Source: Bacteroidota bacterium
Lineage (GTDB): Bacteria; Bacteroidota; Bacteroidia; J057; JADKCL01
Direction of reading: 5' to 3'
Assembly (NCBI GenBank): GCA_039024435.1
Contig: JBCCQH010000095.1
Coordinates: forward strand, 1 to 32,052
Length of the DNA stretch: 32,052 nt
In this document: positions 14,818 to 32,052 of the stretch, piece after piece
Position numbering within the stretch: the first letter of the stretch is position 1
Layout: every line of letters begins with the position of its first letter
The notes under the pieces: generated by a model
What the model was told of the DNA's origin: nothing
The model's input: only the letters and a program-made list of their open reading frames with translations
Databases searched by the model: none
Translations under genes and position numbers: made by a program

Positions 14818-14856
14818 GTGCGTCCAGGACGCGCGCATTGGAAATCGGAAATCAAG
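14818..14856 (-). repeat. Copy A (reverse orientation) of the dispersed intergenic element: ATTTCC(G/A)AT direct repeats plus a GC hairpin.
   Basis: gtgcgtccaggacgcgcgcattggaaatcggaaatc. Its reverse complement, GATTTCCGATTTCCAATGCGCGCGTCCTGGACGC, aligns to copies B and C. It lies about 40 bp upstream of the DUF4440 start, in the divergent region shared with the Tc-like operon. Confidence 0.6.
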
Positions 14857-14891
14857 CAACCAGAAATCACGCACAATGGCTATCTTTCCGC

Positions 14892-15347
14892 ATGCGTCGA
14901 TCCATTGTTTCTACCGTTTTGGGCGCCTGCGCCCTGTTCTTGTGGTTTTCCGGGGCGGCTTGGGCCCAACAAGCCCCCAAAGCCAAGGACCGCACCGCCG
15001 TCCTTGCCATCATGGACCAGCAGGAAAATGCCTGGAATTCCGGCGATCTAGTCGCTTTCATGAACGGATACTGGCGCAATGATTCGCTCAAATTTATCGG
15101 GAAAAGCGGCGTCACCTACGGCTGGGACGCGACGCTGGCCCGCTACCAAAAAGGCTATCCGGATCAGGCCGCCATGGGAAAGCTCACCTTTACCATTTTT
15201 CACGTGGAGGCCATCGGCAAAAAAGCGATGTTGGTGGTGGGCAAATGGTTCCTCCAGCGCGCCGAGGACACGCCCAACGGACATTTTTCCCTGCTCTGGA
15301 AAAAAATCAAAGGCGAATGGGTGATCGTCGCCGACCATTCAAGCTGA
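14892..15347 (+). CDS. DUF4440/SnoaL-like (NTF2-fold) protein with signal peptide.
   Basis: Within ORF 14769..15347, the internal in-frame Met (MRRSIVSTVLGACALFLWFSGAAWAQQ) gives a signal peptide. The body YWRNDSLKFIGKSGVTYGWDATLARYQKGYPD...GHFSLLWKKIKGEWVIVADHSS is typical of the DUF4440/SnoaL-like family. Confidence 0.7.
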   Translation: MRRSIVSTVLGACALFLWFSGAAWAQQAPKAKDRTAVLAIMDQQENAWNSGDLVAFMNGYWRNDSLKFIGKSGVTYGWDATLARYQKGYPDQAAMGKLTFTIFHVEAIGKKAMLVVGKWFLQRAEDTPNGHFSLLWKKIKGEWVIVADHSS

Positions 15348-15641
15348 CCCGTCCGACTTCGACTGTCCGCCGAACCAGCCCTTCATCCGCTTCCAGGTCT
15401 TTTTCTGCTTGTTCCGGAAAAAGGTATATTTTCCAAAAATAAAGGCGTAGCCGAGAATGATCACATTGTAGATGGGCAGCATCGCAAAGATCCACATCAA
15501 CCAGTACTCCAGCGAAAATCGCTCGAAACCCAGTGCCTCCACAATCTGCCGACCCAGCCAGGCCACGGTGAAACCGGTGCAGGTAAATACAGTGAGGACC
15601 AGCACCACGTGGAGCGTCTTATTTTGTCGCCAATTGCTCAT
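15339..15641 (-). CDS. Small two-TM membrane protein (100 aa), translationally coupled to the upstream zinc-ribbon gene.
   Basis: Hydrophobic segments HVVLVLTVFTCTGFTVAWL and WLMWIFAMLPIYNVIILGYAFIF. Its start overlaps the upstream gene's stop (ATGA-type overlap). Confidence 0.6.
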   Translation of the reverse strand: MSNWRQNKTLHVVLVLTVFTCTGFTVAWLGRQIVEALGFERFSLEYWLMWIFAMLPIYNVIILGYAFIFGKYTFFRNKQKKTWKRMKGWFGGQSKSDGSA

Positions 15642-16174
15642 TCCAGGGCCGCCTCCATTTCCGATTTAGCTTGGTCGAGTTCACGCTTTCCGCGCCACAG
15701 CAGGTAGCTCCAGCCCCCGACCGGCAGCAACAGCAGCAGCGTCACCGTGATGTCCCAGCCGAACAGCAGAGGAGCGATCGGAAACAAGGCCAGCAGGAAC
15801 AACACGATGGTATTCGCCCGGACCGTCTGCCGCAGCACCCCGACTTTGTAAGGCAATAACACGCCACGCGCCGCCCGAATGTAATTTTCCATCCCGGGAA
15901 TCTGCAAATTGGCCCGCAGCTTTTTGATGAGCTTAAACGCATTGTCGACCGGCTCGTAGGGATTTTGGTGCTTCACTTGGGGATCTTCCAATTCTCGCAG
16001 CAAACCCTCCAATTCGTCCACGTCGCCGATGACTTCTTCCAGTACATTCAGAGAGTCCTCGGTGAAAAAAGCATTGCCGCAATTGGTACAAGCCGGAATC
16101 AAAGATTCTTGGGTCTTGTAACAACTCTTGCATTTAGTACGCAAATACTTGCGCCGGTCTTTGTGCTTTTTCAT
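15638..16174 (-). CDS. Zinc-ribbon (CxxC...CxxC) protein with a C-terminal two-TM membrane domain (178 aa).
   Basis: KCKSCY and CTNCGN motifs lie within the first 35 aa. The C-terminal hydrophobic helices are IVLFLLALFPIAPLLFGW and VTLLLLLPVGGWSYLLW. Confidence 0.7.
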   Translation of the reverse strand: MKKHKDRRKYLRTKCKSCYKTQESLIPACTNCGNAFFTEDSLNVLEEVIGDVDELEGLLRELEDPQVKHQNPYEPVDNAFKLIKKLRANLQIPGMENYIRAARGVLLPYKVGVLRQTVRANTIVLFLLALFPIAPLLFGWDITVTLLLLLPVGGWSYLLWRGKRELDQAKSEMEAALE

Positions 16175-16235
16175 CCCAAAACAACTTCCCGCAAAAATAC
16201 GCTTTTAAAATTGAACGGGGGAATTTCTAACTGCT

Positions 16236-16278
16236 GATTTCCGATTTCTGATTGGCGCGTCCGGAACGCGCAACCTAC
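16236..16278 (+). repeat. Copy B1 of the dispersed element (direct repeats plus the GCGCGT-CCGGA-ACGCGC hairpin).
   Basis: gatttccgatttctgattggcgcgtccggaacgcgcaacctac. It aligns nearly base-for-base with copy C at 27537..27588, including the AACCTAC/ACCCTAC tail. Confidence 0.7.
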
Positions 16279-16286
16279 AAGGGGCC

Positions 16287-16376
16287 GATTTCCAATTGCT
16301 CAATTTCCAATGTACTGCCAGGGAGCAGTGAGCGAAACGCCTTTCATTGAAAATTGAGCATTGGAAATTGGAAATC
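16287..16376. repeat. Additional ATTTCCAAT direct and inverted repeat units (B2 gatttccaattgctcaatttccaatg; B3 cattggaaattggaaatc) in the same 225-bp gap.
   Basis: Two ATTTCCAAT units with 15-nt start-to-start spacing, then an inverted pair 70 bp further on. The same 15-nt spacing is seen in copy C. Confidence 0.55.
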
Positions 16377-16399
16377 TTCCCACCGGAAATTCTCAATCG

Positions 16400-19300
16400 T
16401 CATTTTTCCATCGCCTTGCGCATTCCTTCAATCCCGTCGACGAGGCTCCCGAGCTGCGCGATGACTTGGCCAAATTTGTCGCTGGCGTCCACGCCGAGCA
16501 AACGCTGCTTTTTCAAGAACGTAGCCTGGATCTCCTGCCAGCGGGCCTTTTCCTCCGGCTTGAGGAAACCGATCAGCTCTTTGAAACGGAGCAGATTCGC
16601 TTCCGCGTCGTTCGTGAGCGTCTGGGACTCGCTCTCGTAATGGGTCATGATCAAAGTCATCAATTCCTGCTCGTTCATAATCGGAATGATCTTCTCGGCG
16701 AGCTTGTTCATGTCCCGGTACGAACCCTGCAACTTGAAGGCCGGCAGCGTGCGAAACTCCTCGGACATACCGGCGGAGCGGATGTACTCCTGGTTGACCT
16801 TGAGGATGACATCCCGCACCACCAAGAGCTTTTGCAGGACGGCAACGATCTCATTGACATCTTCCGGGGCGTAATTGCCTTCCAACTCGATGCCCTCGCG
16901 GCGATTCGACTCGGCGATCTGGAGGAAACCGTGGATATCCTTGTGCGCCCGCTGGGTGACCTTTTGCAAGACCACATTCGAGCTGAGGCTGTTTTCGATC
17001 AGGGAAAGTTCAAAGAAATGCGCCGTATCCCCGATGATATCACCCAGATTATAGGTATCGGCCCGGTTTGCGAGCATATCCGGAATCTGAAACTTGTCCC
17101 CCGATTCCGTGTAGGGATTGCCTGCCATGACCACACAGACCCGCTTGCCCCGCAGGTCGTAGGTCTTGGGCTGATCCTTGTAGACGCCCTCGATCTTGCG
17201 CTGCGCGTCGCACAGGCTGATGAACTTCTGAAGGAATTCCGGGTTGCAGTGCTGGATGTCGTCCAGATAAAGCATGATGTTGTCCCCCATTTCCAGGGCC
17301 AAATTCAGCTTTTGCAGCTCTTCGCGCGCGGCCGCATTCGGCGCTTCTTCCGGATCCAATGACCGCACCGAGTGCCCAATCGCCGGCCCATTGACTTTCA
17401 TAAAGATCAGTCCCAGGCGGTTGGCGATGTACTCCATCAGCGTCGTCTTGCCGTAGCCCGGCGGCGAAATCAACAGCAACAGCCCTTGCCGGTCGGTGCG
17501 CTTGTTTTCGCCCACCGTCCCGATCTGCTTGGCCAGATTGTCCCCAAACAGCGGCAGGTAGACCTCGTCGATGAGCTTGTTCCGCACAAACGACGACAAC
17601 ACCCGGGGCTGGAATTCATTGAGGCGCAATTCCTGCCGGAACTCCTCGGTAAGGCGCTTTTTGAGCCCTTGGTACCGCTCGAAAGCCGGCACTTCCGTCG
17701 TGGTAAAATCGCCGAGTTCGTGCATGAAGTGATTGTAGTCCAGGCGGTAAGCGCCTTTCGGGCCGATCTTGGGGTGGTCGCCGGACAAGGCTTCCACTTC
17801 GCCGACCACACTGGCCACCGACAGACGCACTGCCTCCACCCCACCGCGGAACAGCACCATCGCCGCTTCATCGATGTAGTCCTCCCCATCGGGAACATTT
17901 TGCTGGTGGACGTAAGCGCTCACCCAGTTGCGCAGCAACTGGAATTGCTCGGCGATCCGGCCTTCGAGCCGCTTGAGCGATTGTTCAAAGGTCTTCCCCA
18001 TCGACTTTTGGTCCAGGTAAGCCAGAAAATCCTGCCCGATGCGCGTGCCCTCCGGCGAAGCCACAAACCGGTTCCCCGCCGAAATCTCGTGGAACAAATA
18101 CTCCGCCGCCGAACCCGCCAGTGCCTCCCGGAACAGGCCGGTTTCCACACAAAAAGCCGCCATTCCCGTGCGCAGATCACCGATCAGCGCCCCAAACTCG
18201 TCCGAGTCGGGAAAGACCTGCAAGATGAAGCCGACCCCCTGCAAACGGTGGTCAAACAGCTCACGCGCCGACGCATCCAGGAAATAATCCCACCACATCG
18301 CGGCGCAGGCCCGGGCCTCGGGCAGATAGCGCAAAAGCCCGATGGACCGGTGCAAGCCCACCAAGGTCCGCAGAATCCGCAGCGCATCTTGGTCGTGGAC
18401 CCCTTTTGCGTAGCCTTCCTGGTAGCGCGGCCCAGCAAATTGCTGCAAGCGCTGGCCCTGCTCCTCCGCCGAAAGCTCGGCAAATTCGCTCAGTCCTCGG
18501 CGGTTGCCGTCCTCGCGCAGCGCCGCAAAAAACAGGTACGCCAGGTATTCCGCCCGGTACACCGTACTATTTTCCGACACCAATTCCTGGTCCCAGACCG
18601 GCCGCGTCGCCTCGAACTCCGGATGGCGGATCAATTCGAAAAAGTTGGTTCCGGTCAGGTGAAAATACTGCTCGTCCTCCCGCCGGATGACGGTCAGGTC
18701 CAGCGATTGAACATTCACCGAAAACTTGTGGCGGCCCAGGCGAATGATATTTTCCCCGTCCACAAAGAGTTCCTGCCGGTCTTTGAGCTGGCGCAGCGCA
18801 TCCTCGCGAATGGTTTTGAGGCGCGATTGCAAGTCCTCCGCCTTGACATTGTCTTCCAGGGCGCGCAGCTTTTCCACTACGTCCCGCACCTTGTCGATCA
18901 TCAGATCACCGGCAAAGTAGCCGTTGATTTCCTGTGCCGTACCGAAGTTGTTTACCCGGTTCCGGATGCCGGACAGGATCCGCTCGGCGGACTTAAAGAG
19001 GGCCGCCGCTTTCTTGTTGCGGGCCTCGACGAGCTGCACTTTTCGGGACTCAAAGGCATTGTAGATTTCCTCCCGTTTCTCCGCGATCTGACCGATAAAC
19101 TCGTCAAATTCACTGAACTTGCCCTCCAATTCTTCGACCTGCACCATGAGTTTGGTCAGGTACTCGTCGACTTTTTCCGGCGTGTCGGCCACGTCCAGGA
19201 AATTGATGACCGCCTGGCTGAGGAGCTTGATTTGGCTGGCGAATTCTGCGACGGCTTCGGTAGAAACCAGCTCTTTGCGCCGGCGCCGCAGCGCCGCCCG

Positions 19301-21310
19301 CGCCTGATTCAACTCCGAATAGATGTTCGAGATGTGGTCGATGATCTTCGTCGTCTGGGTCGCATCCTCGATTTTGAGGTTGGATACGATTTCGACCAGC
19401 AGTTCCAGATCAGAGCCGGTCTGCTCGATGGCCGCTTCTAAGGTCGCCGCTTCCGCTGCAGTATTGACCTTTTCGATGGCCGCGCGGTGAGCAGCAACTT
19501 GCTGCTCGTAAGGTCGCAGCGCATCTTCGCGCAGCAAGAATTCCACGCAACGCTGGCTCAGCCGCTCCGATTGGGCGCTCAGATCTTCCTCCAGCGACTG
19601 CACCAATTCCAAGTCCACGTAGCGCAGTTCCTTCAGCCCGATGGCTTCGCCCCGCCAGTTGCGCAGTTCCGCGAGGAAGCGCACAAACTGATTTACCTCG
19701 TCAAAAATGCTCCGCTTGATCTCCGCAATCAGCTTTTGGGCAGCTTCGGATACCCGGCGGGATTCTTCGGCGGTGTGCCGGCGGATCCGCACGACTTTTT
19801 CAAACTCCTCGATGGCATTTTCCGCACTGCGGCGGATGCCCTTGAGCGGGTCATCCAGTTGGAACGACTCGTCGCGGTCCAGCCAGTAGTAGCTGTCGAG
19901 GATGTCGCCGGTCAGTTTGCCCAGGTCGAGGTAGAGATTTGCGTAGGTGTCTTCTTTGTTCAGCAAAATAAGCACCTCCTGGCATTCGGCCATCGCCCGG
20001 ACGATATCCCGGTTGCCGATCTTGAAGAGGTAGTTGTCCGCGTTGCCGGTCAGTTCAAAATCCGGCCCCACGTAGGGCGTCTGCCAAATCTGGATCGCGT
20101 GGTGTTTGCGCGGCTCGTCTTCCGCCTTGAAGTAGCAGAGCTCACCATTTTCGAAATGGCAGAACCCGTTGCACGTGATTGGGGTTTCTACCTGTTGGGC
20201 GATGATGTTGTAGCTCAACATCACGTAGGTTCCGGTCGGTGAATTGTAAAACACATACAGGTAGTCCTCCCCATTGGGGCTCTGAATGCGCTCTTCGAAG
20301 TGCATTTCGGTCAACCCCGATTCAAAGCGCTTATATTCGCCGGTCTGCAGGTAGTAGCCGTCGGCAAAAATGATTCCGTGGTCGTCCGGCAACAAGATGC
20401 AGGAGTGGGCAATCGAATCGATGCGGCGGGCTTGCTGCACCTTTTCGTTGTAGGCAAAGTAGCGGTACTGCTTTTCCTGGAAAGGCCGTACCCGCAGCAG
20501 GATAATGTTCCCCAGATCGGCAAAAAAGATCTCGGCATCGTCCAGGCTTTGCTCTTTGTGAGCGACTTCCTCTTCCAGTATGCCCCGACCGTGATCGGTA
20601 TTGTCTTCCACTTTGATGGTCAAAGTGCCACCGATTGTCTGCACAAACAGGCGATCAAGAATCGAAACGTGGGGAAATTCCCCGGAGCGCTGCATATCGC
20701 GGTGGGCCCTTTTCCAGGCAAATTCGTGCTGGGTCGGATAGCGCACATCCGCTTCACTGCGGCTGTCCACGTAGCGCAGTCCGCCTTCGCCCAATCGCCA
20801 CTTGAACGCCTTGATATCGGTTTCGCTCTTGCCGATCCGAAAGACCATGTACAGAAAGATCCCAATCACCTCGAACTTCACGAAGACGGTTTCGCGGTAA
20901 TACTTGTACAGATTTCCGAAGTCTTCCGCAAACTTTTCATTCTGGATCAGGTCCAGGGGCTCTTGGTGAAAGCGCCGGTCTTCGTAGCGGTAGATGCTGA
21001 ATACATCGCTGAGTTTGGTTTCGGTGCGCAGTCCCATGTGGACATTGTAACCGAAGATTGTGCGGTCCCCCACGGCGACGATGTCGCGGGCGGTGCAGTT
21101 GTTTTCCGTAGAAATGCGATCCGTCGACAGCAGGTTGAAATCGACCGAGCCGAAGACTTCCTTGCGGGCATGGTTGAGCTTGCCCAGGCGCGTGCGCAGT
21201 TCGGCCCCTTGGTTAAGCAGACGGTTGCGAATGATCTCGTAAGCGCCCCCTTCCAACTGGACGGTAGGCTCCGCCGCCGAGGATTCAAGATTGGGGTTTT
21301 CGTTTGCCAT
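16400..21310 (-). CDS. Giant (1636 aa) protein with a C-proximal MoxR/AAA_5-class AAA+ ATPase domain. The N-terminal ~1250 aa comprise a beta-rich repeat region and a ~450-aa helical/coiled-coil region that I cannot assign to a family.
   Basis: Walker A is LLLISPPGYGKTTL (around 17440-17475). Walker B/second region is LYLDDIQHCNPEFLQKF, and sensor-1 is VCVVMAGNPYTESGDKFQIPDMLANRA, matching MoxR/AAA_5 spacing. The long N-terminus shows no other recognizable catalytic motif. Confidence 0.9.
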   Translation of the reverse strand: MANENPNLESSAAEPTVQLEGGAYEIIRNRLLNQGAELRTRLGKLNHARKEVFGSVDFNLLSTDRISTENNCTARDIVAVGDRTIFGYNVHMGLRTETKLSDVFSIYRYEDRRFHQEPLDLIQNEKFAEDFGNLYKYYRETVFVKFEVIGIFLYMVFRIGKSETDIKAFKWRLGEGGLRYVDSRSEADVRYPTQHEFAWKRAHRDMQRSGEFPHVSILDRLFVQTIGGTLTIKVEDNTDHGRGILEEEVAHKEQSLDDAEIFFADLGNIILLRVRPFQEKQYRYFAYNEKVQQARRIDSIAHSCILLPDDHGIIFADGYYLQTGEYKRFESGLTEMHFEERIQSPNGEDYLYVFYNSPTGTYVMLSYNIIAQQVETPITCNGFCHFENGELCYFKAEDEPRKHHAIQIWQTPYVGPDFELTGNADNYLFKIGNRDIVRAMAECQEVLILLNKEDTYANLYLDLGKLTGDILDSYYWLDRDESFQLDDPLKGIRRSAENAIEEFEKVVRIRRHTAEESRRVSEAAQKLIAEIKRSIFDEVNQFVRFLAELRNWRGEAIGLKELRYVDLELVQSLEEDLSAQSERLSQRCVEFLLREDALRPYEQQVAAHRAAIEKVNTAAEAATLEAAIEQTGSDLELLVEIVSNLKIEDATQTTKIIDHISNIYSELNQARAALRRRRKELVSTEAVAEFASQIKLLSQAVINFLDVADTPEKVDEYLTKLMVQVEELEGKFSEFDEFIGQIAEKREEIYNAFESRKVQLVEARNKKAAALFKSAERILSGIRNRVNNFGTAQEINGYFAGDLMIDKVRDVVEKLRALEDNVKAEDLQSRLKTIREDALRQLKDRQELFVDGENIIRLGRHKFSVNVQSLDLTVIRREDEQYFHLTGTNFFELIRHPEFEATRPVWDQELVSENSTVYRAEYLAYLFFAALREDGNRRGLSEFAELSAEEQGQRLQQFAGPRYQEGYAKGVHDQDALRILRTLVGLHRSIGLLRYLPEARACAAMWWDYFLDASARELFDHRLQGVGFILQVFPDSDEFGALIGDLRTGMAAFCVETGLFREALAGSAAEYLFHEISAGNRFVASPEGTRIGQDFLAYLDQKSMGKTFEQSLKRLEGRIAEQFQLLRNWVSAYVHQQNVPDGEDYIDEAAMVLFRGGVEAVRLSVASVVGEVEALSGDHPKIGPKGAYRLDYNHFMHELGDFTTTEVPAFERYQGLKKRLTEEFRQELRLNEFQPRVLSSFVRNKLIDEVYLPLFGDNLAKQIGTVGENKRTDRQGLLLLISPPGYGKTTLMEYIANRLGLIFMKVNGPAIGHSVRSLDPEEAPNAAAREELQKLNLALEMGDNIMLYLDDIQHCNPEFLQKFISLCDAQRKIEGVYKDQPKTYDLRGKRVCVVMAGNPYTESGDKFQIPDMLANRADTYNLGDIIGDTAHFFELSLIENSLSSNVVLQKVTQRAHKDIHGFLQIAESNRREGIELEGNYAPEDVNEIVAVLQKLLVVRDVILKVNQEYIRSAGMSEEFRTLPAFKLQGSYRDMNKLAEKIIPIMNEQELMTLIMTHYESESQTLTNDAEANLLRFKELIGFLKPEEKARWQEIQATFLKKQRLLGVDASDKFGQVIAQLGSLVDGIEGMRKAMEK
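17020..17490 (-). other. AAA+ (MoxR/AAA_5-like) ATPase core of the giant protein (about residues 1275-1430).
   Basis: Walker A, Walker B and sensor-1 motifs as above. Coordinates are derived from residue positions. Confidence 0.7.
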
Positions 21311-21326
21311 TGAAGTAATTTGGTGA

Positions 21327-21341
21327 TGATCGGATCATCTT
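21327..21341. promoter_or_regulatory. Small inverted repeat GATGATC-CG-GATCATC about 20 bp upstream of the giant ATPase start codon.
   Basis: gatgatccgatcatc is a perfect 7-bp inverted repeat in the 161-bp gap between the flotillin and ATPase genes. Confidence 0.3.
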
Positions 21342-21380
21342 AAAATGGTGACCGGAGTCCGGTCTTGTTTCGGGGATGGA

Positions 21381-21434
21381 GGGTGCCCCGGGCACCCGGA
21401 GCGCATCCGCACGCCTTTCGGGGTGCGGATGCGC
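21381..21434 (-). promoter_or_regulatory. Two adjacent GC-rich stem-loops in the flotillin-to-ATPase intergenic gap: a 7-bp stem GGGTGCC/GGCACCC and a perfect 12-bp stem GCGCATCCGCAC/GTGCGGATGCGC with a 10-nt loop.
   Basis: gggtgccccgggcaccc followed by gcgcatccgcacgcctttcggggtgcggatgcgc. No U-tract follows on the transcribed strand, so this is not a canonical intrinsic terminator. A role as a partial attenuator, processing site or stability element is possible. Confidence 0.5.
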
Positions 21435-21471
21435 GGGGGAAGTACCCCGGTCGCGGGTTCAACCGGGCCGA

Positions 21472-23727: not shown

Positions 23728-23816
23728 TTTAGTTCAATAAGTATTAGAAGATGTTGAAATGGTTTTCCGATATGCGGTTGCTATGCTTGTTTTCGGCCAT
23801 AAATAACGAGGGGCAG

Positions 23817-24560
23817 TCAGGCCGATGCGGGCGATTCCAGCGCGATTTCTTCCGCGAATTCCTGCACGGAGAACACGCTGTTGCCTTCCCGGACTTCTCT
23901 TTCCAGAATGAGGCAGCGGGTGCCCGAGGTGATCTTTTCTCCATCAAATGAGCGCACGGTGATCCGCAGGTGCTTGTCCCGCACCACGACATCCGCTTGC
24001 CCCAAGCGCACCCCTTCTACCCCCAGTTCCAGCGTACACAGCTTTCCGATCAGGTTCACCGGGGCATCGCCTTTGCTCATTTCGCGGAACATCTTGCGCA
24101 GCGGCTGGGTAAACAGCTTGGCCACCAGCAGTCCAAACACGAAACCGCCCCCGAGAATTCCCGCGGTCAACCCAGGCTGACCGGCGGCAAAATAGTGGTT
24201 CCCGATGATGGAAGCTGCCCAGTAAAACAGCGCAAAAAAGCTGAAAAAGATCATAAAAGGCACGTCTCCCAGGTTCAAAAAGTAGAGTATCCGTGCGCCG
24301 AGTCCGGGCGATTTGCCCGCCAGGGCTTTCCCCATGTCCTTGCCGCCTTTGCTGCCCACCTCGGAATCCGCATCGACGTCGACATCCACGTCCACGTCGA
24401 CATCCACGTCCACGTCCAAATCGACATCTACGTAGAAGTCCATGAAACTCAGGTCGAGCATGCCAAATAGAAAGACCAGCCAATACAGCACCACAAAAAG
24501 GAGCAGTATAGTCGGAAATACATTGGCAGGGGAAAATGATAAGTCGAAGATTTCTTTCAT
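23817..24560 (-). CDS. NfeD-like (YqiJ-type) membrane protein with a C-terminal OB-fold, the canonical partner of SPFH proteins. It carries an internal (Asp-Val)n repeat (247 aa).
   Basis: N-terminal TM helices, then YVDVDLDVDVDVDVDVDVDVDVDADSE, further TM segments (FMIFFSFFALFYWAASIIG, GILGGGFVFGLLVAKLF), and a C-terminal beta-rich domain (LGQADVVVRDKHLRITVRSFDGEKITS). It lies 89 bp upstream of the flotillin gene, matching the yqiJ-yqiK / nfeD-floT arrangement. Confidence 0.8.
   Translation of the reverse strand: MKEIFDLSFSPANVFPTILLLFVVLYWLVFLFGMLDLSFMDFYVDVDLDVDVDVDVDVDVDVDADSEVGSKGGKDMGKALAGKSPGLGARILYFLNLGDVPFMIFFSFFALFYWAASIIGNHYFAAGQPGLTAGILGGGFVFGLLVAKLFTQPLRKMFREMSKGDAPVNLIGKLCTLELGVEGVRLGQADVVVRDKHLRITVRSFDGEKITSGTRCLILEREVREGNSVFSVQEFAEEIALESPASA
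24366..24435 (-). repeat. Imperfect tandem hexamer (GACGTS)n inside the NfeD-like gene, encoding alternating Asp-Val.
   Basis: catcgacgtcgacatccacgtccacgtcgacatccacgtccacgtccaaatcgacatctacgtag. Confidence 0.7.
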
Positions 24561-24574
24561 CGAAGTTCCGAATC

Positions 24575-24625
24575 CCGTATAGGTGTGCTAAAATCTAAAA
24601 AAATCGGGGTGCAAAAAAGCGTTCA
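24575..24625 (-). promoter_or_regulatory. Candidate Bacteroidota-type promoter (TTTG ... TAGATTTT) for the nfeD-flotillin operon.
   Basis: The minus-strand sequence cttttttgcaccccgatttttttagattttagcacacc lies 30-60 nt upstream of the ATG. It is only a partial match to the -33 TTTG / -7 TAnnTTTG consensus. Confidence 0.25.
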
Positions 24626-25020
24626 ACGCAATTTTTTTCGCCCCACTTATGCAGGTACGAAGTTGACGTTGGCAAGAATTTCAATTGGGGGGAAGTCCGG
24701 GGCGGTTGTTTGATTCTCGTCCCCAGCGGGACCGCACGGTCTACCAAGACAGCGCGTCGCAATCGGCTTGGGTCAGTTGGCCCCGGAAAGTGGAGTGGGT
24801 AATGGTGTTTACATAGATGGTAAGCTTAGCGATTTGTAGTAAATACGGAAAAGTAAATCGCCGGGTTGCAAGTATCACTACTATTTTTAATAGTTTTATT
24901 TTTAATACATGGATCTGTCAGAAAAACTGTACATTCAGCTCACGCCATTGTCGAGGACGGCACTAAGAATGCCGAATCGTTTGCTATATTGGCCCAACTT
25001 ATATACCAAAGCTGATTCAC

Positions 25021-25881
25021 ATGAAAAATATCTCCTTTTTCTTCCTGTTCATGGTGGCGGCGCTGTTGTTCGTTGGGTGTGAGCAAGCCGCCGAATCCAG
25101 CGGCGAAGAAGCTCCCCCAACCCAAGACGCTCCCGAAGCCACGCAGCCCGCTCCGCCAGAAACCTCCACAAAATTCAGCGCCGGTGGCTTGACGGTCTAC
25201 GCCATCGAAGATTCGCCACAATTTCCCGAGGCCAGCCTGGAAATGAACGAGCCGGTCATCGGAACCGATCTGGAACCAGGCGAAAACAGCTTCGATTTCA
25301 CCGTTTCCGGGTACGAATTGGGGGTACCGACGCCCGGGGCCGGCGACAACGGCCTCGCCAATTCTGGCAAAGGTCAGCACATCCACTTGATCATGAACAA
25401 TGGGCCGTACTCGGCGCACTACGAGCCCAGTTTCACCAAGGATTTAGAGGAAGGTCACTACGTTGCCCTCGCGTTCCTCTCGCGCAGCTTTCACGAAAGT
25501 GTCAAAGCCCCGAACGCCTTTGCGGTCAGCCAGTTTGTGGTCGGCACCCCGGCAAATATCAAAGAAGCCAATCTTTCCGCTCCGCACCTGTTTTACAGCC
25601 GCCCAAAAGGCAGTTATTACGGCGAAGACACAGAAAAACTGTTGCTGGACTTTTTCCTGGTCAATTGCAACCTGAGTCCGGACGGCTACAAAGTGCGCGC
25701 CACCATCAACGGCAACGAATTCACGTTTACCAAGTGGGTACCCTACGCCGTGGAGGGCCTGAAGTTCGGCGAGGTCACGGTCAAGCTTGAACTGCTGGAC
25801 AAAGCGGGAAACCTGGTCGAGAGCCCCTTCAATCCAGTAGAGCGTACGGTTACGCTGGCGGAAAAGCAGTCGGAAGGTTGA
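25021..25881 (+). CDS. Lipoprotein of unknown function (286 aa).
   Basis: MKNISFFFLFMVAALLFVGCEQ is a lipobox-type signal with Cys, followed by a low-complexity Pro/Glu/Ala linker and a globular domain with no recognizable motif. Confidence 0.75.
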   Translation: MKNISFFFLFMVAALLFVGCEQAAESSGEEAPPTQDAPEATQPAPPETSTKFSAGGLTVYAIEDSPQFPEASLEMNEPVIGTDLEPGENSFDFTVSGYELGVPTPGAGDNGLANSGKGQHIHLIMNNGPYSAHYEPSFTKDLEEGHYVALAFLSRSFHESVKAPNAFAVSQFVVGTPANIKEANLSAPHLFYSRPKGSYYGEDTEKLLLDFFLVNCNLSPDGYKVRATINGNEFTFTKWVPYAVEGLKFGEVTVKLELLDKAGNLVESPFNPVERTVTLAEKQSEG

Positions 25882-25911
25882 TTTAGCCCACGAACCAGCC
25901 CTGTACAAACT

Positions 25912-25964
25912 GCGCCGCACCGCTTGCCATCGATTGCGAGAGGCAAGCGGTGCGGCATTTTTAT
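25912..25964. terminator. Rho-independent terminator, probably bidirectional, between convergent genes.
   Basis: gcgccgcaccgcttgcc-atcgattgcgaga-ggcaagcggtgcggc followed by attttta. The GC stem is a perfect 15 bp with a T-run on the plus strand and a partial T-run on the minus side. Confidence 0.65.
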
Positions 25965-26030
25965 CGGTGGAGAAAACCTCAATTTTGATTGCAGGGGCCG
26001 TGAACGTAGCACAACCCTACAAACAAGCCC

Positions 26031-27119
26031 CTACAACTTCACCACCCGCTTCGAAGCCTGCTTGCCGCCGGTGCGGACAGTTGCAAAGTACACCCCGGCG
26101 GCAAAACGCCCCAGTTCCAGATTCACTTGATTGGTGCCCGCGCGGGCGACTTGCGATTGCTGCCATACCATTTGGCCGTGCAGATCGGTGATCGCGATCT
26201 CCGCCGTGCCCTCAACTTCGCAGTCAAACGCGATCGTGAGTGCATTCTGAAAAGGATTTGGAAATGCGGTGGTGATTCCGAAGTCTACCCCACCCTCCAA
26301 GGTAGCCGTAACCACGTCAGAAACGCTGCGCGATCCGTCCAAATCCACCTGAAAAATCCGGTAATAGTGCTGCCCGAAACCGGGCCCCACATCCTCAAAT
26401 TGGTAGCTTTGGAGGGTACTCGAATTGCCGATGGCCTCGACCATTCCGACAGCAGTAAAGTTTTCGCCGTCCGCCGAGCGCTGCACTTCAAAGTAATCGT
26501 TGTTGCTCTCCTCGGCAGTGGCCCAAGTGACATTGATCGCATCTTCGGTGGCCACCGCCCCGACGCTCGCCCAAACCACCGGGAGCGTCGTAAAATCGAC
26601 CATCATATCCGCGTCCGGATAGCAACCCGAGTAGGGATTGCCCGACCCTTCGATGCCGGCAAGGCGCACTGAATCGGGCATTTCGTTGACCCGAAAGACC
26701 ATTTGCCGGGTATCGGTGTGGACACTACCGCAAAGCGATGAGGAGGAGACACAGGTAAAGGGAATTCCATTGTAAATGTAAGCGATGGCAAATTTTGAAC
26801 CGAGGGCGTCCGCCATCTCGATCCCATTGTAAGTCGTATGGGTAGAATCGCTCGTCACCGCAGCCGGGTAGGAAATCGAGGACAGCGTTTCGCCGCCGTA
26901 GAAAAGAAAAGCAAAGGTTTGGGTTTCGGCACCGGCACCCTTCTTGGTACCGGTCACTCCCCCGCCGATGTTCATGGTGATGTAAATGTCGACGTAGGAA
27001 TCGCTGCGGACCACGCTGTCGAGCGCGATTTCTGAGCGGTCGCAGGCATAAGTATTTTGGGGAATGGCCAGGATCAAGGCCAGAATGAAGAGCAGTCCAG
27101 TAGTGTAGCGTTGGTTCAT
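26031..27119 (-). CDS. Secreted protein with a T9SS C-terminal sorting domain (362 aa).
   Basis: Signal peptide MNQRYTTGLLFILALILAIPQNTYA. The C-terminus NPFQNALTIAFDCEVEGTAEIAITDLHGQMVWQQSQVARAGTNQVNLELGRFAAGVYFATVRTGGKQASKRVVKL is a textbook type-A Por secretion CTD. Confidence 0.85.
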   Translation of the reverse strand: MNQRYTTGLLFILALILAIPQNTYACDRSEIALDSVVRSDSYVDIYITMNIGGGVTGTKKGAGAETQTFAFLFYGGETLSSISYPAAVTSDSTHTTYNGIEMADALGSKFAIAYIYNGIPFTCVSSSSLCGSVHTDTRQMVFRVNEMPDSVRLAGIEGSGNPYSGCYPDADMMVDFTTLPVVWASVGAVATEDAINVTWATAEESNNDYFEVQRSADGENFTAVGMVEAIGNSSTLQSYQFEDVGPGFGQHYYRIFQVDLDGSRSVSDVVTATLEGGVDFGITTAFPNPFQNALTIAFDCEVEGTAEIAITDLHGQMVWQQSQVARAGTNQVNLELGRFAAGVYFATVRTGGKQASKRVVKL

Positions 27120-27536
27120 GGGGTCAATGATATATTGGTCAAAAAACAGTAGTTAAAACGAAGTCTTGGTTGGAAATGACAATCGGGGACCAAAAGGTCC
27201 CCGACTGCTGCCTTTGAAAATGAAATGTTGGTGCTGGTAATTTAAAGAACGATGCTTGCCTAATGAATTGGAATACTATAATTTTTTATTTGCTGTCTAA
27301 GAACTTGGTTTTTAACGTTTGCTTCAGGTGAGCGTCTGCTGTTTTGTCTGCGGTTATCGTTTCGTTTACAATACCAAATACGCGCTTTTTTCGCCCCGGG
27401 ATTATCAATCCTGCACCAATAACTGATAAGATTGTCCCGGTTTTGCGGCATGGAACATTGACCTGTCATTCCACAATCCGCAACTATCAATGGCGTTGCG
27501 CAGACTGTGACAATTGTTCCAAAATGGGGGATGGGA

Positions 27537-27588
27537 GAATTTCCAATTGTCCGATTTCCAATTGGCGCGTTCCGGACGCGCACCCTAC
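27537..27588 (+). repeat. Copy C of the dispersed element (two ATTTCCAATTG units plus the GCGCGT-TCCGG-ACGCGC hairpin and ACCCTAC tail).
   Basis: gaatttccaattgtccgatttccaattggcgcgttccggacgcgcaccctac. Weaker partial copies occur at about 27808-27818 (ggaaattgaat), 31904-31917 (cattggaaattgag) and 24676-24690 (gaatttcaattgggg). Confidence 0.7.
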
Positions 27589-27627
27589 GATCATAAAAAA
27601 CAACCCATTTAGTCCCTTCAGCACGTG

Positions 27628-27663
27628 GATCGTAGCGGCCGACCATGATCGGCCGCTACGATC
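27628..27663. promoter_or_regulatory. Perfect 15-bp inverted repeat with a 6-nt spacer (GATCGTAGCGGCCGA-ccatga-TCGGCCGCTACGATC) in a 700-bp non-coding gap.
   Basis: Seen directly in the sequence. No flanking U-tract on either strand, so it is either a protein-binding palindrome or a structured RNA element rather than an intrinsic terminator. Confidence 0.5.
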
Positions 27664-27822
27664 TGATGAACCGACGGGTTGAACGCCGTGATCAAACAGC
27701 TCCATGATTGAATCCAAACGGAGATCAGTGCTTGAGATTTTCCAGTGATCCGCACCGCATCACCAACTACGGTGGAGCGGCGATTGAAAATTGCACATGG
27801 AAATTGAATATTCTCCGCCCTC

Positions 27823-29874
27823 CTAGGTGAGCGATTTTCGGACTTCGCGCGGGGTCAGGTTGAAATGCTCGGTAAAACACTTCGTAAAGTAAGACGGCGA
27901 ACTGAAGCCGACGTCGTAGGCGATCTCCGAAATATTGCCCGTATCCCGCCGCAGCATCTCCATCGCCGTTTCCAGGCGATACGTCCGAATCACGTACCCC
28001 GCCGAATTTCCGGTGAGCGCGGTCAACTTGCGGTGAACCTGGGTGCGGCTCATGCCCAACTCGGTGCAGAGCGCCTCCACCCCGAATTGCTCATCGCTGA
28101 GGTGTGCGTGGATGACTGACTTGACTTTGAGGAGAAATACTTCCTCCCGCGACTTGGCCTTGATTGGCTGGGGAGCGGTGAGAAATTGATTGCGGAAATA
28201 ATCCCGCAGACGTACGCGGCCCTGAATGAGGTTGCGCACCCGGACCCGAAGCTCCCGCCCTTCGAAGGGCTTGGTCAGGTAATCATCCGCTCCGAGTTCC
28301 AGGCCTTCCAATTTGTCTTCGATGGCAGCGCGCGCGGTGAGCATGATCACGGGGACGTGACTGGTGGCATCGTCTTGCTTGAGGATAGAACAAAACTCAA
28401 ATCCGTCCATTTCCGGCATCATCACGTCACAGACCACCAGGTCCGGAACCACTTCATTTGCGATGGTCAGCCCTTCCCGGCCATTTCCCGCGGTACGGAG
28501 GTTGTATTCCCCCGCCAATTCCGCTGCGACCAATTGCCGCATGTCCGGGTTGTCTTCCACGATCAAGACCGTAGGACGTGAGTCATCGATTGCGCGTTCG
28601 GCCTCTTGGGGAATCTCATCTTCGTCCGGAGCAATGTTCACTTCGCGGTCTTCGGGCAACTGAGGCTCCCACTCCCGCAATTCAAATACCTCAGTGGCAC
28701 CTTCTACGTGAGGCAAAGTGAAGAAAAACTCGGATCCCAGCCCTTCGATGCTGCGGACCGACATCTCGCCCGCGTGCAGTTCCACCAGCTCTTTGCTGAG
28801 CGACAGACCTATGCCCGTGCCCTTGCCCTGCCGGCCTTCTACGCGGAAAAACCGGTCAAATACGTGCGGCAGATCCGCCTGGGGAATGCCGACACCGGTA
28901 TCCTTGATCGAAACCGTAAATCGGTCCATCGCCTCGTCGACGGCCATGTCCACCAACACCCGTCCGCCTTCTGGGGTAAACTTGAGCGCATTTGAGAGGA
29001 GATTGTACAATATCTGCACGATGCGCTCGGGGTCCAGATCGGTAAAAAATTGCTCGGGCTGGCGTTGAATCCGCAACTCGATCTGCTTCCGGGCGGCGAG
29101 GTCGCGGAAGGAAGTGACCACTTCCCGCAGGAGGGCCGGCAAGTCCACCCGCTTTCGGTGCAACTTCATGCTGCCCGCTTCCACCCGTGATAGGTCCAGC
29201 AAGCGATTGATCAACTGCAACAACCGGCGGCTGTTGCTGTGGACGATTTTCAGGTTTTGTACGGTGTGGGCTTCCCGGGTCAATTCCAGAGTCCGCTCTA
29301 CCGGTCCCATAATCAGCGTCAGCGGGGTGCGCAATTCGTGGGTGATATTGGCGAAGAAATCCTCTTTGAGCTTTTCCGAAGCGCGTGCGAGTTCTTTTTC
29401 CCGAATCGCCGATTCCAAAGCCTGGGCCGCGGCCCGGCCTTCGTGCATTTTGTCCAGCTCATTGGCGGCTTTTTCCAGGGTCATCTTCAAGTCGTCGAAC
29501 TCGACGGGCTTGGTGATGAAGTCAAACGCCCCGCTGTTCATGGCGTGGCGGATGTTTTTCATATTGCCGAAAGCAGTCACCACGACCACCCGCAACAAAC
29601 GGTCCTGGAACTCCTCGGTTTCGAGTGTCCGCAAGAAAGTGATGCCATCCATCTCCGGCATATTTATATCGGTGAAGACAATCCCGATATCTGTGTGTTT
29701 GCGCAATAAGTCCAGCCCGTCCGCGCCGTTGTAGGCAAAGTACAGATCAATGTCCCCACTCCGAACCGCTTTCCGGAACCGCTGCCGAATGAGGGTCTCA
29801 AAATCTTGCTCATCGTCGATGAACAATACCTTGCGGGGGGGCATTTCTTCCACTGGTGCCTGAGCCTTATCCAT
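27823..29874 (-). CDS. Cytoplasmic hybrid two-component protein: REC, HisKA, HATPase_c, a second REC and an AraC-type HTH (683 aa).
   Basis: REC1 is VFTDINMPEMDG. The phospho-His box is ITHELRTPL. The ATPase has N/G boxes LSNALKFTPEGG and DTGVGIP...GTGIGLSL. REC2 is VVCDVMMPEMDG...LTARA...DDYLTKPF. The C-terminal AraC HTH is ...GNISEIAYDVGFSSPSYFTKCFTEHFNLTP. There is no TM or periplasmic sensor. Confidence 0.9.
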   Translation of the reverse strand: MDKAQAPVEEMPPRKVLFIDDEQDFETLIRQRFRKAVRSGDIDLYFAYNGADGLDLLRKHTDIGIVFTDINMPEMDGITFLRTLETEEFQDRLLRVVVVTAFGNMKNIRHAMNSGAFDFITKPVEFDDLKMTLEKAANELDKMHEGRAAAQALESAIREKELARASEKLKEDFFANITHELRTPLTLIMGPVERTLELTREAHTVQNLKIVHSNSRRLLQLINRLLDLSRVEAGSMKLHRKRVDLPALLREVVTSFRDLAARKQIELRIQRQPEQFFTDLDPERIVQILYNLLSNALKFTPEGGRVLVDMAVDEAMDRFTVSIKDTGVGIPQADLPHVFDRFFRVEGRQGKGTGIGLSLSKELVELHAGEMSVRSIEGLGSEFFFTLPHVEGATEVFELREWEPQLPEDREVNIAPDEDEIPQEAERAIDDSRPTVLIVEDNPDMRQLVAAELAGEYNLRTAGNGREGLTIANEVVPDLVVCDVMMPEMDGFEFCSILKQDDATSHVPVIMLTARAAIEDKLEGLELGADDYLTKPFEGRELRVRVRNLIQGRVRLRDYFRNQFLTAPQPIKAKSREEVFLLKVKSVIHAHLSDEQFGVEALCTELGMSRTQVHRKLTALTGNSAGYVIRTYRLETAMEMLRRDTGNISEIAYDVGFSSPSYFTKCFTEHFNLTPREVRKSLT

Positions 29875-30010
29875 GGTCGCTATCCAATCTGGGCCGGAGG
29901 GTGTTACCCGGAGGGGTTGGACCTTCCGTTTGCATTTCTTTTGTTCCGCAAAATTACACTATTTAAAGTAGAGAGGAAAGCCCGGAAGAACTCAGCCCTA
30001 ATTATCCGTC

Positions 30011-30550
30011 ATGTCTACTCCGCCCCCTTCAGAAAGGTCCTCGGGACCGCGCATCCTGATCATCGGCAGCCCGGGATCGGGCAAATCCACCCTCGCGACG
30101 CAACTGCATGCGGCGACCCAGCTCCCATTGATCCGGCTGGATCAGGAGTACTGGCAGCCCGGCTGGGTAGAACCGGACCGGGCGACCTGGCGCGCCCGGG
30201 TGGCCGAATTGGCGCAGCGGGAGCGCTGGATCATGGAGGGGAACTACGGCGGCACCTTTGATCTGCGGATACCGCGGGCCGATCTCGTGGTCTACCTCGA
30301 CTTGCCGACGAGGGTGACCCTCTTGCGGGTCATCCGGCGCGTATGGAAACACCGGGGCCATTCGCGACCGGACATGCCGGAGGGCTGCCCGGAACATTTC
30401 AGCCTAAAATTTTTGTTCTACGTGTTGCACTTTCGCGCTTCCCGGCGCGCGGGCATCTTGGCGCGGCTGGACAAACTGCGCCCGGACCAGGAAAGGGCCC
30501 ACCTCACCGGCAAAACGGCGGTGAAACAGTTCCTCCGCCAGTGGCAATGA
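30011..30550 (+). CDS. P-loop NTPase/kinase of the topology-modulation-protein (FlaR-like, adenylate-kinase fold) type (179 aa).
   Basis: RILIIGSPGSGKSTLA is the Walker A motif. DLVVYLDLP and the short overall length are consistent with the FlaR/AAA_33 family. Confidence 0.7.
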   Translation: MSTPPPSERSSGPRILIIGSPGSGKSTLATQLHAATQLPLIRLDQEYWQPGWVEPDRATWRARVAELAQRERWIMEGNYGGTFDLRIPRADLVVYLDLPTRVTLLRVIRRVWKHRGHSRPDMPEGCPEHFSLKFLFYVLHFRASRRAGILARLDKLRPDQERAHLTGKTAVKQFLRQWQ

Positions 30551-30640
30551 ACAAGTTTTCCCCCCCAGGCATTGCACGTCTCCCCTTATCTTGCGACATT
30601 GTGAGTCGATTATTGCAATACGGAATTATTTCTTAGTTCA

Positions 30641-31798
30641 ATGCCGAACAAAGCTTACTTCAAAGTAGACACGAAGTTAGCGGCTTTGCTGGGGGAGAGT
30701 TATCGCTCCACAGAGTACGCGCTCAAAGAACTCGTCGACAACGCCTGGGACGCCGATGCGGAAAATGTCTGGATTTATCTGCCCGATCCGCTGACCAATG
30801 ATCCCATCCTCGTGATCGACGACGGCCTGGGCATGACCGAAAAGGAAGTCAAGGAAGGCTACCTGAAAATCGCCAGCGACCGCCGCACCCGCAAAGGGGA
30901 ACGCACCGCGCGCTTCAACCGCCGGGTCAAAGGCCGCAAGGGAATCGGAAAGTTTGCCGGCCTGGTCTCCGCCAATCAAATGGAAATCGCCACCAAAGCC
31001 CGCGGCAAGAAAACCACGCTGCTCATCGCCAAGCATGCCCTCCTTTCCTCAAAAAAGGACTTGGAAAAAATCGACTTGCCGATTGCCATCGAGGCGTGCC
31101 CGGAGGATCAAAAGGGAACTGCCATAAAGTTGTCCGATCTCAACCAAAACCTCAGCTTCCCCGATCCCAATGTCCTGAAACAGTTGCTCTTCCTCGAGTA
31201 CGGCCGGCAAAGCAACTTCCGCATTTTTGTAAATGAAGAAGCCCTCGACGTAGAAGACCTCCCCGGTGAAACCTTCCAGGAAGAGGCCGAAGTGAGCCAC
31301 GTGGGCACCGTCCGCTTGAAATTTACCATTACCGAGCGCAAAGCGCCCAAGCAGAGCGGGGTGGCCGTCCGGGTAAACGGTAAAATTGTGGGCAAACCGC
31401 AGTTTTTCGGCCTGGACGAAAGCGAAGAAATCCCGTCGCGCATGCTGAACCGCGTCTACGGCGAAGTCGAAGCCGATGGATTGGAAGATGTCGTCACCGC
31501 CGATTGGGGAAACATCATCGAGAACAGCAAAGGCTGGCAAAAGCTGGAAGCATTTGTCCGCTTCAAACTCCTCAAGGCGCTCAAGGCCCGGCAAAAGCAA
31601 GAAATCAGCCTCACCCAGACCCGTTGGAAGCACGAAATCGCCCGCGAACTCGAAAAGCTTCCCCCGCACAAGCGTCCCTTTGCCGCGACCGCATTGGACA
31701 AAGTCCTCAAGAAATTTTACAACCAAAAGGACGAGAACATCCGCGCCGTCATCTCCGTCGTCTTCGATCTCCTCAAAGAGGTCAATGTACGGGTTTAG
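30641..31798 (+). CDS. GHKL/Bergerat-fold ATPase of the HATPase_c_3 (MORC-like) type (385 aa).
   Basis: ALKELVDNAWDA (N-box, ExxxNxxDA), VIDDGLGMTEKEV (DxGxG) and GRKGIGKFAG (G2 box). The C-terminal ~200 aa is helical and otherwise unassigned. Confidence 0.75.
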   Translation: MPNKAYFKVDTKLAALLGESYRSTEYALKELVDNAWDADAENVWIYLPDPLTNDPILVIDDGLGMTEKEVKEGYLKIASDRRTRKGERTARFNRRVKGRKGIGKFAGLVSANQMEIATKARGKKTTLLIAKHALLSSKKDLEKIDLPIAIEACPEDQKGTAIKLSDLNQNLSFPDPNVLKQLLFLEYGRQSNFRIFVNEEALDVEDLPGETFQEEAEVSHVGTVRLKFTITERKAPKQSGVAVRVNGKIVGKPQFFGLDESEEIPSRMLNRVYGEVEADGLEDVVTADWGNIIENSKGWQKLEAFVRFKLLKALKARQKQEISLTQTRWKHEIARELEKLPPHKRPFAATALDKVLKKFYNQKDENIRAVISVVFDLLKEVNVRV

Positions 31799-32052
31799 AA
31801 TATTTTTAACGGACGCTTCGCTCAAATCCCAATGGGGCGCTTCGCTTGATTTTCAATTGTGCCGCCTTCCCGCAAGTGGAAGTTCATTGGAAATTGAGAA
31901 TTAAAATTTCTTTAGAGGCTGTTTAAAATTGATTTGTGAAATTTGTTATCGCAGATTTTTTTGTCAATCGAAGCTCATTTTGGAGTGCGCAGCCCAAGCT
32001 GCGGACGAGAAAATAGCTGAAGAGTGGCAGAAAAAGGTGCCATAACAAAATC

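Follow-up and report, generated by a model that had tools for sequence, protein, structure and literature searches.

In the repetitive extragenic palindromes (REPs) that are tagged with GTAG, a GTAGG-type head beside a short GC hairpin is the hallmark (PMC3733652). BrickBuilt, from Porphyromonas gingivalis, is a species-specific intergenic MITE (miniature inverted-repeat transposable element) with tandem repeats (PMC4596501), and heptamer direct repeats can be found between genes in Cyanobacteria, Beggiatoaceae and a few Bacteroidetes, close relatives being without them (PMC4679880). Traits of all three are met in contig JBCCQH010000095.1 of an uncultured Bacteroidota metagenome-assembled genome (MAG), whose protein names bear AAGN35_ locus tags and which is analyzed here over its whole length of 32,052 nt (the window). 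In its intergenic gaps, short arrays of the 7-nt unit TTGGAAA recur together with GC-rich hairpins. This repeat family is real, statistically solid and non-coding, and it is reasonably likely that its elements are a lineage-specific dispersed mosaic repeat of the kind represented by REPs, bacterial interspersed mosaic elements (BIMEs) or MITEs, with heptamer micro-arrays.

One part of the family, termed module M, is found in three copies (A, B, and C) and in one possible decayed copy:

14806-14875, plus strand: M copy A, with GAAGG, the hairpin GTGCGT-CCAGG-ACGCGC (14818-14834) and the heptads TTGGAAA, TCGGAAA ... AGAAATC; 83 bits.
16212-16283, minus strand: M copy B, with GTAGG, the hairpin GCGCGT-TCCGG-ACGCGC (16255-16271) and the heptads CAGAAA, TCGGAAA ... 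AGAAATTCCCCC; 93 bits.
27528-27593, minus strand: M copy C, with GTAGG, the hairpin GCGCGT-CCGGA-ACGCGC (27565-27581), then TTGGAAA, TCGGACA, A, TTGGAAA, TTCTCCC; 78 bits.
14696-14730, plus strand: possible decayed M module, weak, with GGGCG..CGCGCC and CATCGGAAACCGGTAAT; 14.7 bits, E 0.05, 110 nt upstream of copy A.

Copies A, B, and C pair at 79-85% identity over 39-52 nt in a repeat search of the window, one of them being inverted, and the three long copies reported at these sites by an earlier sequence-only reading of the contig are thus confirmed. The pattern GCGTNNNNNACGCGCNNATNNGAAATCGGA, which was written to fit all three copies, matches only these and has 0 matches in 100 shuffles. 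Their alignment of ~70 nt has a mean column identity of 80%, with a consensus running from (T/A)TTG-G(T/A)AGG-(G/T)T through a 6-bp stem with a 5-nt loop, CAATTGGAAATCGGAAATC and 7-8 nt to RGAAATT-CYCCC. The bit scores are those of a covariance model of M run over the whole window with filters off, in which A, B, and C reach 78-93 bits and a hairpin-less match at 16344-16402 (array D, see below) reaches 22 bits (E 3e-4); coding sequence gives no significant match. Copy A ends ~20 nt upstream of the ATG of a DUF4440 gene (14892), and copy B ~40 nt upstream of the ATG at 16174 of a gene for a 178-aa protein. For the hairpins of copies B and C, a "loop flip" was considered and dropped, a 1-nt shift around the internal palindrome TCCGGA explaining the difference equally well.

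The likeness to REPs and BIMEs (PMC3733652, PMC2817692) lies in the short hairpin, rich in GC, whose stem has 6 bp (up to 10 bp) and stands a few bases from a GTAG(G) head, in the strictly extragenic placement, often just past stop codons and in both orientations, and in the mosaics with other conserved motifs, the G.T stem pairs and the species-specific occurrence. However, a conserved AT-rich tail of 35-40 nt, made of 7-nt repeats, is attached to each hairpin here and is lacking in REPs. The hairpins of A, B, and C agree with the imperfect palindrome of 20-40 bp, folding as a GC-rich stem-loop, that defines REPs. A further criterion applied for REPs was an unpaired GTAG at one end in >90% of members; ahead of the M hairpin, GTAGG stands in B and C (2/3) and GAAGG in A, three copies being too few to judge, and the other hairpins of the family are unrelated in sequence. 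Furthermore, a 2013 survey reported only CGTC types, and no GTAG-type families, from Bacteroidetes.

Copies B and C are the 3' portions of two longer composites, el1 and el2, where M is preceded by a second unit, P, which consists of inverted arrays around a variable hairpin and is seen three times in the window:

16286-16402, no strand assigned: P unit of el1, made of array E, the hairpin ACTGC-CAGGGA-GCAGT (16314-16329) and array D.
16212-16399, minus strand: el1, P + M, ~188 nt, occupying the gap from the stop codon of a 1636-aa ATPase gene to where the promoter region of the 178-aa gene lies.
27528-27822, minus strand: el2, a P-like part, a ~130-nt insert and M, ~295 nt, beginning at the stop codon of a hybrid kinase gene.
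27755-27815, plus strand: array G, the upstream end of el2, with the interrupted hairpin CCGC-AT-CACC/GGTG-GA-GCGG (27755-27780), then TTGAAAA, TTGCACA, TGGAAAT, TGAATAT, TCTC.
27628-27663, no strand assigned: perfect palindrome in el2 with a 15-bp stem, GATCGTAGCGGCCGA-CCATGA-TCGGCCGCTACGATC, with GTAG on both arms; el1 is without it.
31848-31917, plus strand: copy F, P type, with GATTTTCAATTG, the hairpin CTTCC-CGCAAGT-GGAAG (31866-31882), then CATTGGAAATTGAGAATTAAAATTTC.
24676-24690, plus strand: single degenerate unit, AAGAATTTCAATTGG, similar to the element terminus GAGAATTTCCAATTG; possibly chance or a relic.

When 16195-16405 is aligned with 27515-27830, el1 and el2 are homologous at both ends and their parts follow in the same order. 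Read on the minus strand, like the genes upstream of them, both begin with the stop codon, which is followed by an inverted array (GAGAAT(T/A)TTC...AATTTTCAATSG), a hairpin, a forward array and lastly M, ending in GAAATTCYCCC. Array E (16288-16312) has the minus-strand reading GGAAAT, and array D (16344-16395) reads TTGAAAA, TTGAGCA, TTGGAAA, TTGGAAA ... GGAAATTCTC on the plus strand and abuts the stop codon at 16400; the two pair into a stem of ~26 bp in the RNA fold of el1. Copy F lies 50 nt past the stop codon of a HATPase_c_3 gene, and 31922-31958 resembles the outer flank of el1 (16204-16240) at 73%. The bricks are therefore met as P+M (el1), P+X+M (el2), P alone (F) and M alone (A), i.e., in two full copies (188 and 295 nt) and at least two partial ones. 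Both composites are predicted to fold into very stable structures (el1, -70.8 kcal/mol, z -5.3; el2, -123 kcal/mol, z -5.8; z versus shuffles), with end-to-end pairing in both folds. The ends of el2, GGAGAATATTCAATT... and ...AATTGGAAATTCTCC, form an imperfect terminal inverted repeat (TIR) of ~30 nt (23/30 identities), the TIR of el1 being weaker, and GGAGAATTTCCAATTG is the end sequence by which a parent insertion sequence (IS) would be recognised. The palindrome at 27628-27663 may be a nested second repeat type.

In BIMEs, REPs of alternating orientation recur in fixed combinations with conserved linker motifs between them; el1 and el2 have the order P-hairpin-array-M in common, but the hairpins of P differ from those of M. 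The composites resemble BrickBuilt and other MITEs in their length of 190-295 nt (50-500 bp in MITEs), their non-coding and always intergenic nature, their inverted-repeat ends, strong predicted structure and internal short tandem repeats, as well as in the presence of full and partial copies in one lineage. The tandem unit, however, is of 7 nt and repeated 2-4 times, versus 23 nt in BrickBuilt, and it is this unit that the TIRs are built of.

The heptad unit TTGGAAA (ATTTCCA on the other strand) forms arrays of 2-4 units, of which one is often degenerate. At <=1 mismatch, ATTTCCAAT has 22 matches in the window versus 9.1 +/- 3.2 expected. Non-coding DNA, which makes up about 9-10% of the window and has a GC content of 48% (57% overall), holds all of the exact ATTTCCAAT occurrences (8/8) and 9 of the 11 of TTGGAAAT. 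When every 21-nt segment was compared with (TYGRAAA)3, 14 segments at seven sites (A, B, E, D, C, G, and F) scored as arrays, against an expectation of 0.2 in shuffles of the window and of 0.065 in shuffles of intergenic DNA. All 14 are intergenic, which, together with the lack of significant coding matches to the M model, bears out the placement in non-coding gaps claimed earlier. The claim of a regular 15-nt spacing did not survive: units are spaced by 7 nt at 14840/14847 and 16360/16367, and the "15" at 16288/16303 and 27539/27554 is 7+8, the heptad in the middle (TCGGACA or TTGAGCA) being degenerate. Copy A has the array TTGGAAA, TCGGAAA, 16347-16374 reads TTGAAAA, TTGAGCA, TTGGAAA, TTGGAAA, and Tandem Repeats Finder gives a period of 7 at 16360-16375 and 27538-27563. 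Among the satellite units listed by the sequence-only reading, those at 27808-27818 and 31904-31917 do belong to arrays, as their tails only (27783-27815, the array proper within G, and 31885-31910, the array portion of F); the degenerate unit at 24676-24690 is picked up by neither the array score nor the M covariance model.

A perfect hairpin of >=5 bp ending <=20 nt 5' of the array accompanies six of the seven arrays, the background frequency being 0.10, while the seventh (G) has an interrupted 4+4-bp stem instead. The GCGCGT/ACGCGC hairpin, said earlier to be conserved, is indeed present in A, B, and C and restricted to them; the four other arrays (D/E, F, and G) bear hairpins of other sequences in the same relative position. 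Compared with known intergenic heptamer repeats (the short tandemly repeated repetitive sequences of Cyanobacteria, and the TAACTGA repeats of Beggiatoaceae, Cyanobacteria and a few Bacteroidetes; PMC4679880), the 7-nt unit, the short tandem intergenic arrays often beside start or stop codons and the sporadic phylogenetic distribution, with close relatives lacking them in the same gaps, are alike. In contrast, the heptad is TTGGAAA here, and the arrays are very short, imperfect, coupled to hairpins and arranged in inverted pairs.

These data bear on whether anything was dispersed at all, since the arrays could be local simple-sequence repeats that arose independently by slippage in AT-rich gaps. 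Among the long simple-sequence repeat units of bacteria, heptamers are the most frequent (Mrazek, 2007, as cited in PMC4679880), and in one Acidobacteriota gap, described below, 95%-identical relatives differ in the heptads that they carry at one and the same site. Nevertheless, the identity of A, B, and C extends over the specific hairpin and both flanks, and el1 and el2 have a common order of parts at both ends; because of these similarities, copying between loci is required. Slippage alone is scarcely likely as an explanation and is largely refuted for M, although it could hold for the growth of arrays inside copies.

Evidence of insertion comes from relatives. Orthologues of the hybrid kinase are found in three loci of relatives (L017, L018, and L019; 73-75% amino acid identity), and in L017 and L019 the kinase stop codon leads almost directly into a non-coding block that is also kept in the window. 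In the window, ~278 nt are present in excess between the kinase stop codon and this block, and they correspond to el2, so that L017 and L019 represent the empty site and support an insertion. The C-terminus of the kinase reads ...SLT* in the window versus ...SLNN* and ...SLKS* in the relatives, the last two codons being different. A 128-aa open reading frame (ORF) over copy C is considered spurious, since it shows no homology to the 130-aa gene that the relatives have at this place. Upstream of the orthologues of the 178-aa gene (52-61% amino acid identity; L008 and L009) there is no element either. Array dimers and M model matches are absent (0) from all seven non-self loci (L008, L009, and L017-L021; ~58 kb), arrays are absent from the kinase-orthologue loci L017-L019 across 31 kb, and two contigs with kinase paralogues from other assemblies (P0010 and P0045) carry no elements. 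The REP/MITE-like repeat family that had been offered earlier as an alternative is thus favored by near-identical modules that recur in either orientation and in gaps unrelated to one another, by their assembly into nested palindromes whose ends are TIR-like, and by one insertion relative to relatives.

The non-coding block next to copy C (27125-27300, minus strand; kept in L017 at 12275-12445 and in L019 at 3165-3340) is an observation in its own right. Some 80 nt are near-invariant. The 10-bp hairpin after them varies in sequence from genome to genome, 7 pairs being changed on both sides; in L017 and L019 a second hairpin and a T-run come next, and there is no Rfam match. The block is regarded as a candidate leader or small RNA. 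In L018, two DDE_Tnp_1 transposase fragments (7275-8901) lie directly upstream of the gene for the orthologous kinase. The HATPase_c_3 gene (30641-31798) is also beside the hybrid kinase in L017 (8007-9164), with a different gene between them: that of a P-loop kinase-like protein in the window and that of a 109-aa protein in L017.

The sequence-only reading had mainly proposed a regulon, in which a winged-helix response regulator or a regulator of the AraC type, such as the REC-AraC hybrid kinase encoded at 27823-29874, would bind the repeats as tandem half-sites. Heptad arrays can serve as protein-binding sites in other systems, as the heptads of the omega repressor exemplify. A short motif recurs here in several intergenic regions, A and B lie 20-50 nt from a start codon, and the kinase gene with its AraC domain does adjoin copy C. 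Yet copy C is 3' of that gene and not in its promoter region (29875-30010), which has no array, and the orthologues in L017-L019 are kept with no arrays nearby or in 31 kb. The spacing of 7 and 15 nt is not the 10-11 or 21 nt of such sites, arrays D, G, and F are directly 3' of stop codons, several such arrays point into gene 3' ends, the arrays form long inverted repeats, and an operator would not be expected to contain a conserved GC hairpin that has GTAGG as its head and CYCCC as its tail. The elements are probably not a set of regulator binding sites, and this explanation is very unlikely. Readings of the units as sigma-54, sigma-70 or Bacteroidota -33/-7 promoters were also dropped, no match being seen by eye.

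The strong structures raise another question, namely whether the elements act at the RNA level or at gene boundaries, the hairpin and (UUGGAAA)n being cis-acting transcript signals: 3'-end stabilisers, terminators without a U-tract, intercistronic insulators, or arrays for an S1 or cold-shock-type post-transcriptional regulator. Besides the stability of the el1 and el2 folds, the polarity is consistent, since el1, el2 and F begin just past a stop codon and A, B, and C face the next start codon, and the same proposal has been made for TAACTGA heptamer repeats upstream of start codons (PMC4679880). Variation between strains is also compatible with it. The region 10352-32052 recurs at 99.4% identity in GCA_038745175.1 and at 99.5-100% in the Logan assemblies of SRR22824304 and SRR22824307, and the only single nucleotide polymorphism (SNP) within elements among these strains, 14833 G>A, replaces T.G by T-A in the stem of copy A, so that on the sense strand pairing is retained (G.U versus A-U). 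The Acidobacteriota arrays, too, abut stop and start codons. On the other hand, no hairpin is followed by a T-run, the tails reading CAAUUGGAAAUC, and a terminator scan reported no element hairpin and no enrichment at the element sites. The 178-aa gene has a Bacteroidota-type -7 box, TATTTTTG (16196-16203), which is also seen in L008; since module B is upstream of this box, it would be outside the 5' untranslated region (UTR) of that gene. The orthologous gaps of relatives are without elements, and the hairpin sequences differ between P units. Rfam gave no match at the gathering score for the window, nor at E<=1 for 27100-27540 and 14150-16420. A role as transcript signals is, on balance, unlikely.

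In the lineage-specific mosaic repeat that is favored here, two bricks are combined, the 7-nt TTGGAAA array and a GC-rich hairpin directly 5' of it. One combination, M (GTAGG, GCGCGT-N5-ACGCGC, array and GAAATTCYCCC), is conserved in three copies. The two nested palindromes, of 190-295 nt, have P and M in the same order, and their ends are inverted repeats of heptads. Spread may have occurred as non-autonomous mobile DNA or by recombination; candidate enzymes would be a transposase reading the TIR-like ends or an IS200/REP-associated tyrosine transposase (RAYT)-type enzyme reading the GTAG-headed hairpin. The heptad arrays would expand and decay via replication slippage. Once transcribed in 3' UTR or intercistronic RNA, the elements would fold into hairpins of very high stability, by which transcripts could be stabilised or ended; effects of this kind would be by-products of insertion.

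Several points weigh against this proposal. No target-site duplication is found at el1 or el2 with either plausible boundary versus L017 and L019, unlike what MITEs would show, the boundaries being uncertain and the relatives distant; an IS200/RAYT-type mechanism would agree with this lack better than one of DDE type, with the same uncertainty of boundaries. The empty sites come from fairly distant relatives (~25% amino acid divergence), and a loss in their lineage could replace the insertion of el2, although it is less parsimonious. Among the 99.4-100% identical strains, no presence/absence polymorphism of elements is found, nor are there element indels or the 7-nt variation in unit number that would be expected of heptamer repeats, turnover being seen in the Acidobacteriota example only. 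There is no transposase or RAYT gene on the 32-kb contig. Finally, selection for a function could be hinted at by polarity, as modules A, B, and C are all oriented towards the start of the gene that follows and the composites share one polarity relative to the upstream gene.

Searches beyond the contig returned little of the family itself. The M pattern has 0 matches in JGI metagenomes and 0 in viral contigs; a scan of a genome-contig collection, which does not hold the source genome, gave one chance match in a Firmicutes MAG; other scans of viral contigs gave chance matches in coding sequence of AT-rich phages, or none; a plasmid BLAST search found no similar sequence, and a literature search for the motif strings found primers only. 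A looser two-heptad pattern gave 32 loci in metagenomes, of which ~30 are chance or coding matches (e.g., L028) and only two, L025 (100-225) and L047 (2270-2400), are true array palindromes. In these soil contigs, intergenic inverted arrays of (TTTCCRA)4-5 ... (TYGGMAA)4 lie between a stop codon and the next gene, the TTGGAAA-type identity of their heptads being imposed by the search pattern and not to be over-read. L025 belongs to the Acidobacteriota (Terriglobales) according to its RarA homologues. At the same SpoU-RarA gap, L054 and L056 (95% identical to L025; 9905-10000) carry arrays of other heptads (TTTTAAA x3, TTTTCGA, TTTCCGA ... TCGTAAA, TCGACAA x2), and L057, an 87% relative, carries none. 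The comparison of L025, L054, and L057 suggests a slippage-like turnover of heptads at one orthologous gap, which is a precedent for the mosaic repeat. Hence, palindromes of heptad arrays exist at gene boundaries outside this MAG as well, and array turnover is fast.

The same loci can be turned against the mosaic repeat, as gene-boundary arrays in Acidobacteriota could indicate a shared function rather than selfish spread. In its most far-reaching form, the elements would not be junk: the hairpin and (TTGGAAA)n would be recognition arrays for a protein reading 7-nt repeats, which would mark, insulate or tune gene boundaries, and the Acidobacteriota arrays would reflect a shared, undescribed mechanism. 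The reader would be a ribbon-helix-helix type DNA binder or a single-strand/RNA binder. Such a mechanism is considered distinctly unlikely.

The genes surrounding the elements are the following:

12550-14172, minus strand: secreted protein with a weak match to a type IX secretion system (T9SS) sorting domain.
14892-15347, plus strand: DUF4440 gene, ATG at 14892.
15339-15641, minus strand: DUF6787 gene.
15638-16174, minus strand: 178-aa protein, no Pfam match, ATG at 16174.
16400-21310, minus strand: DUF3686/DUF7902/AAA ATPase, 1636 aa, stop codon at 16400.
21472-23727, minus strand: 751-aa protein, no or weak Pfam match, with degenerate 27-33-nt periodic repeats at 21978-22407.
23817-24560, minus strand: 247-aa YqiJ-like membrane protein, no or weak Pfam match, with 18/24-nt tandem repeats at 24366-24442.
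25021-25881, plus strand: protein without Pfam match.
26031-27119, minus strand: T9SS sorting-domain protein.
27823-29874, minus strand: REC-HisKA-HATPase-REC-AraC hybrid kinase.
30011-30550, plus strand: P-loop kinase-like protein.
30641-31798, plus strand: HATPase_c_3 (MORC-like) gene.

The genes of the 1636-aa ATPase, the 751-aa protein and the 247-aa protein are three consecutive genes on the minus strand (16400-24560). The stretch 14132-14891 between divergent genes is unusually long for a non-coding one (~760 nt), and no feature was recognised in it beyond copy A and the possible decayed copy at 14696-14730. Two neighbouring giant genes without Pfam domain are found on the minus strand at the other end of the contig, one of >1979 aa running off the contig end (3-5939) and one of 2204 aa (5929-12543); the plus-strand ORFs 528-3995, 3999-4934 and 5001-5906 are antisense artefacts of the former.

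For the annotation of this genome, the family explains puzzling gaps, the spurious 128-aa ORF and the two-codon difference between the end of the kinase and its orthologues. It adds to the Bacteroidota a REP/MITE-like family with a GTAG-headed hairpin fused to heptamer micro-arrays, a combination joining two repeat classes that are usually handled apart, the palindromic elements on the one hand and the simple-sequence repeats of heptamers on the other. Should hundreds of copies be present in complete genomes, the family would be of use as a strain marker and as a test case for mosaic mobilisation. The mechanism of this mobilisation and the function, if any, of gene-boundary heptad arrays across phyla are worth attention.

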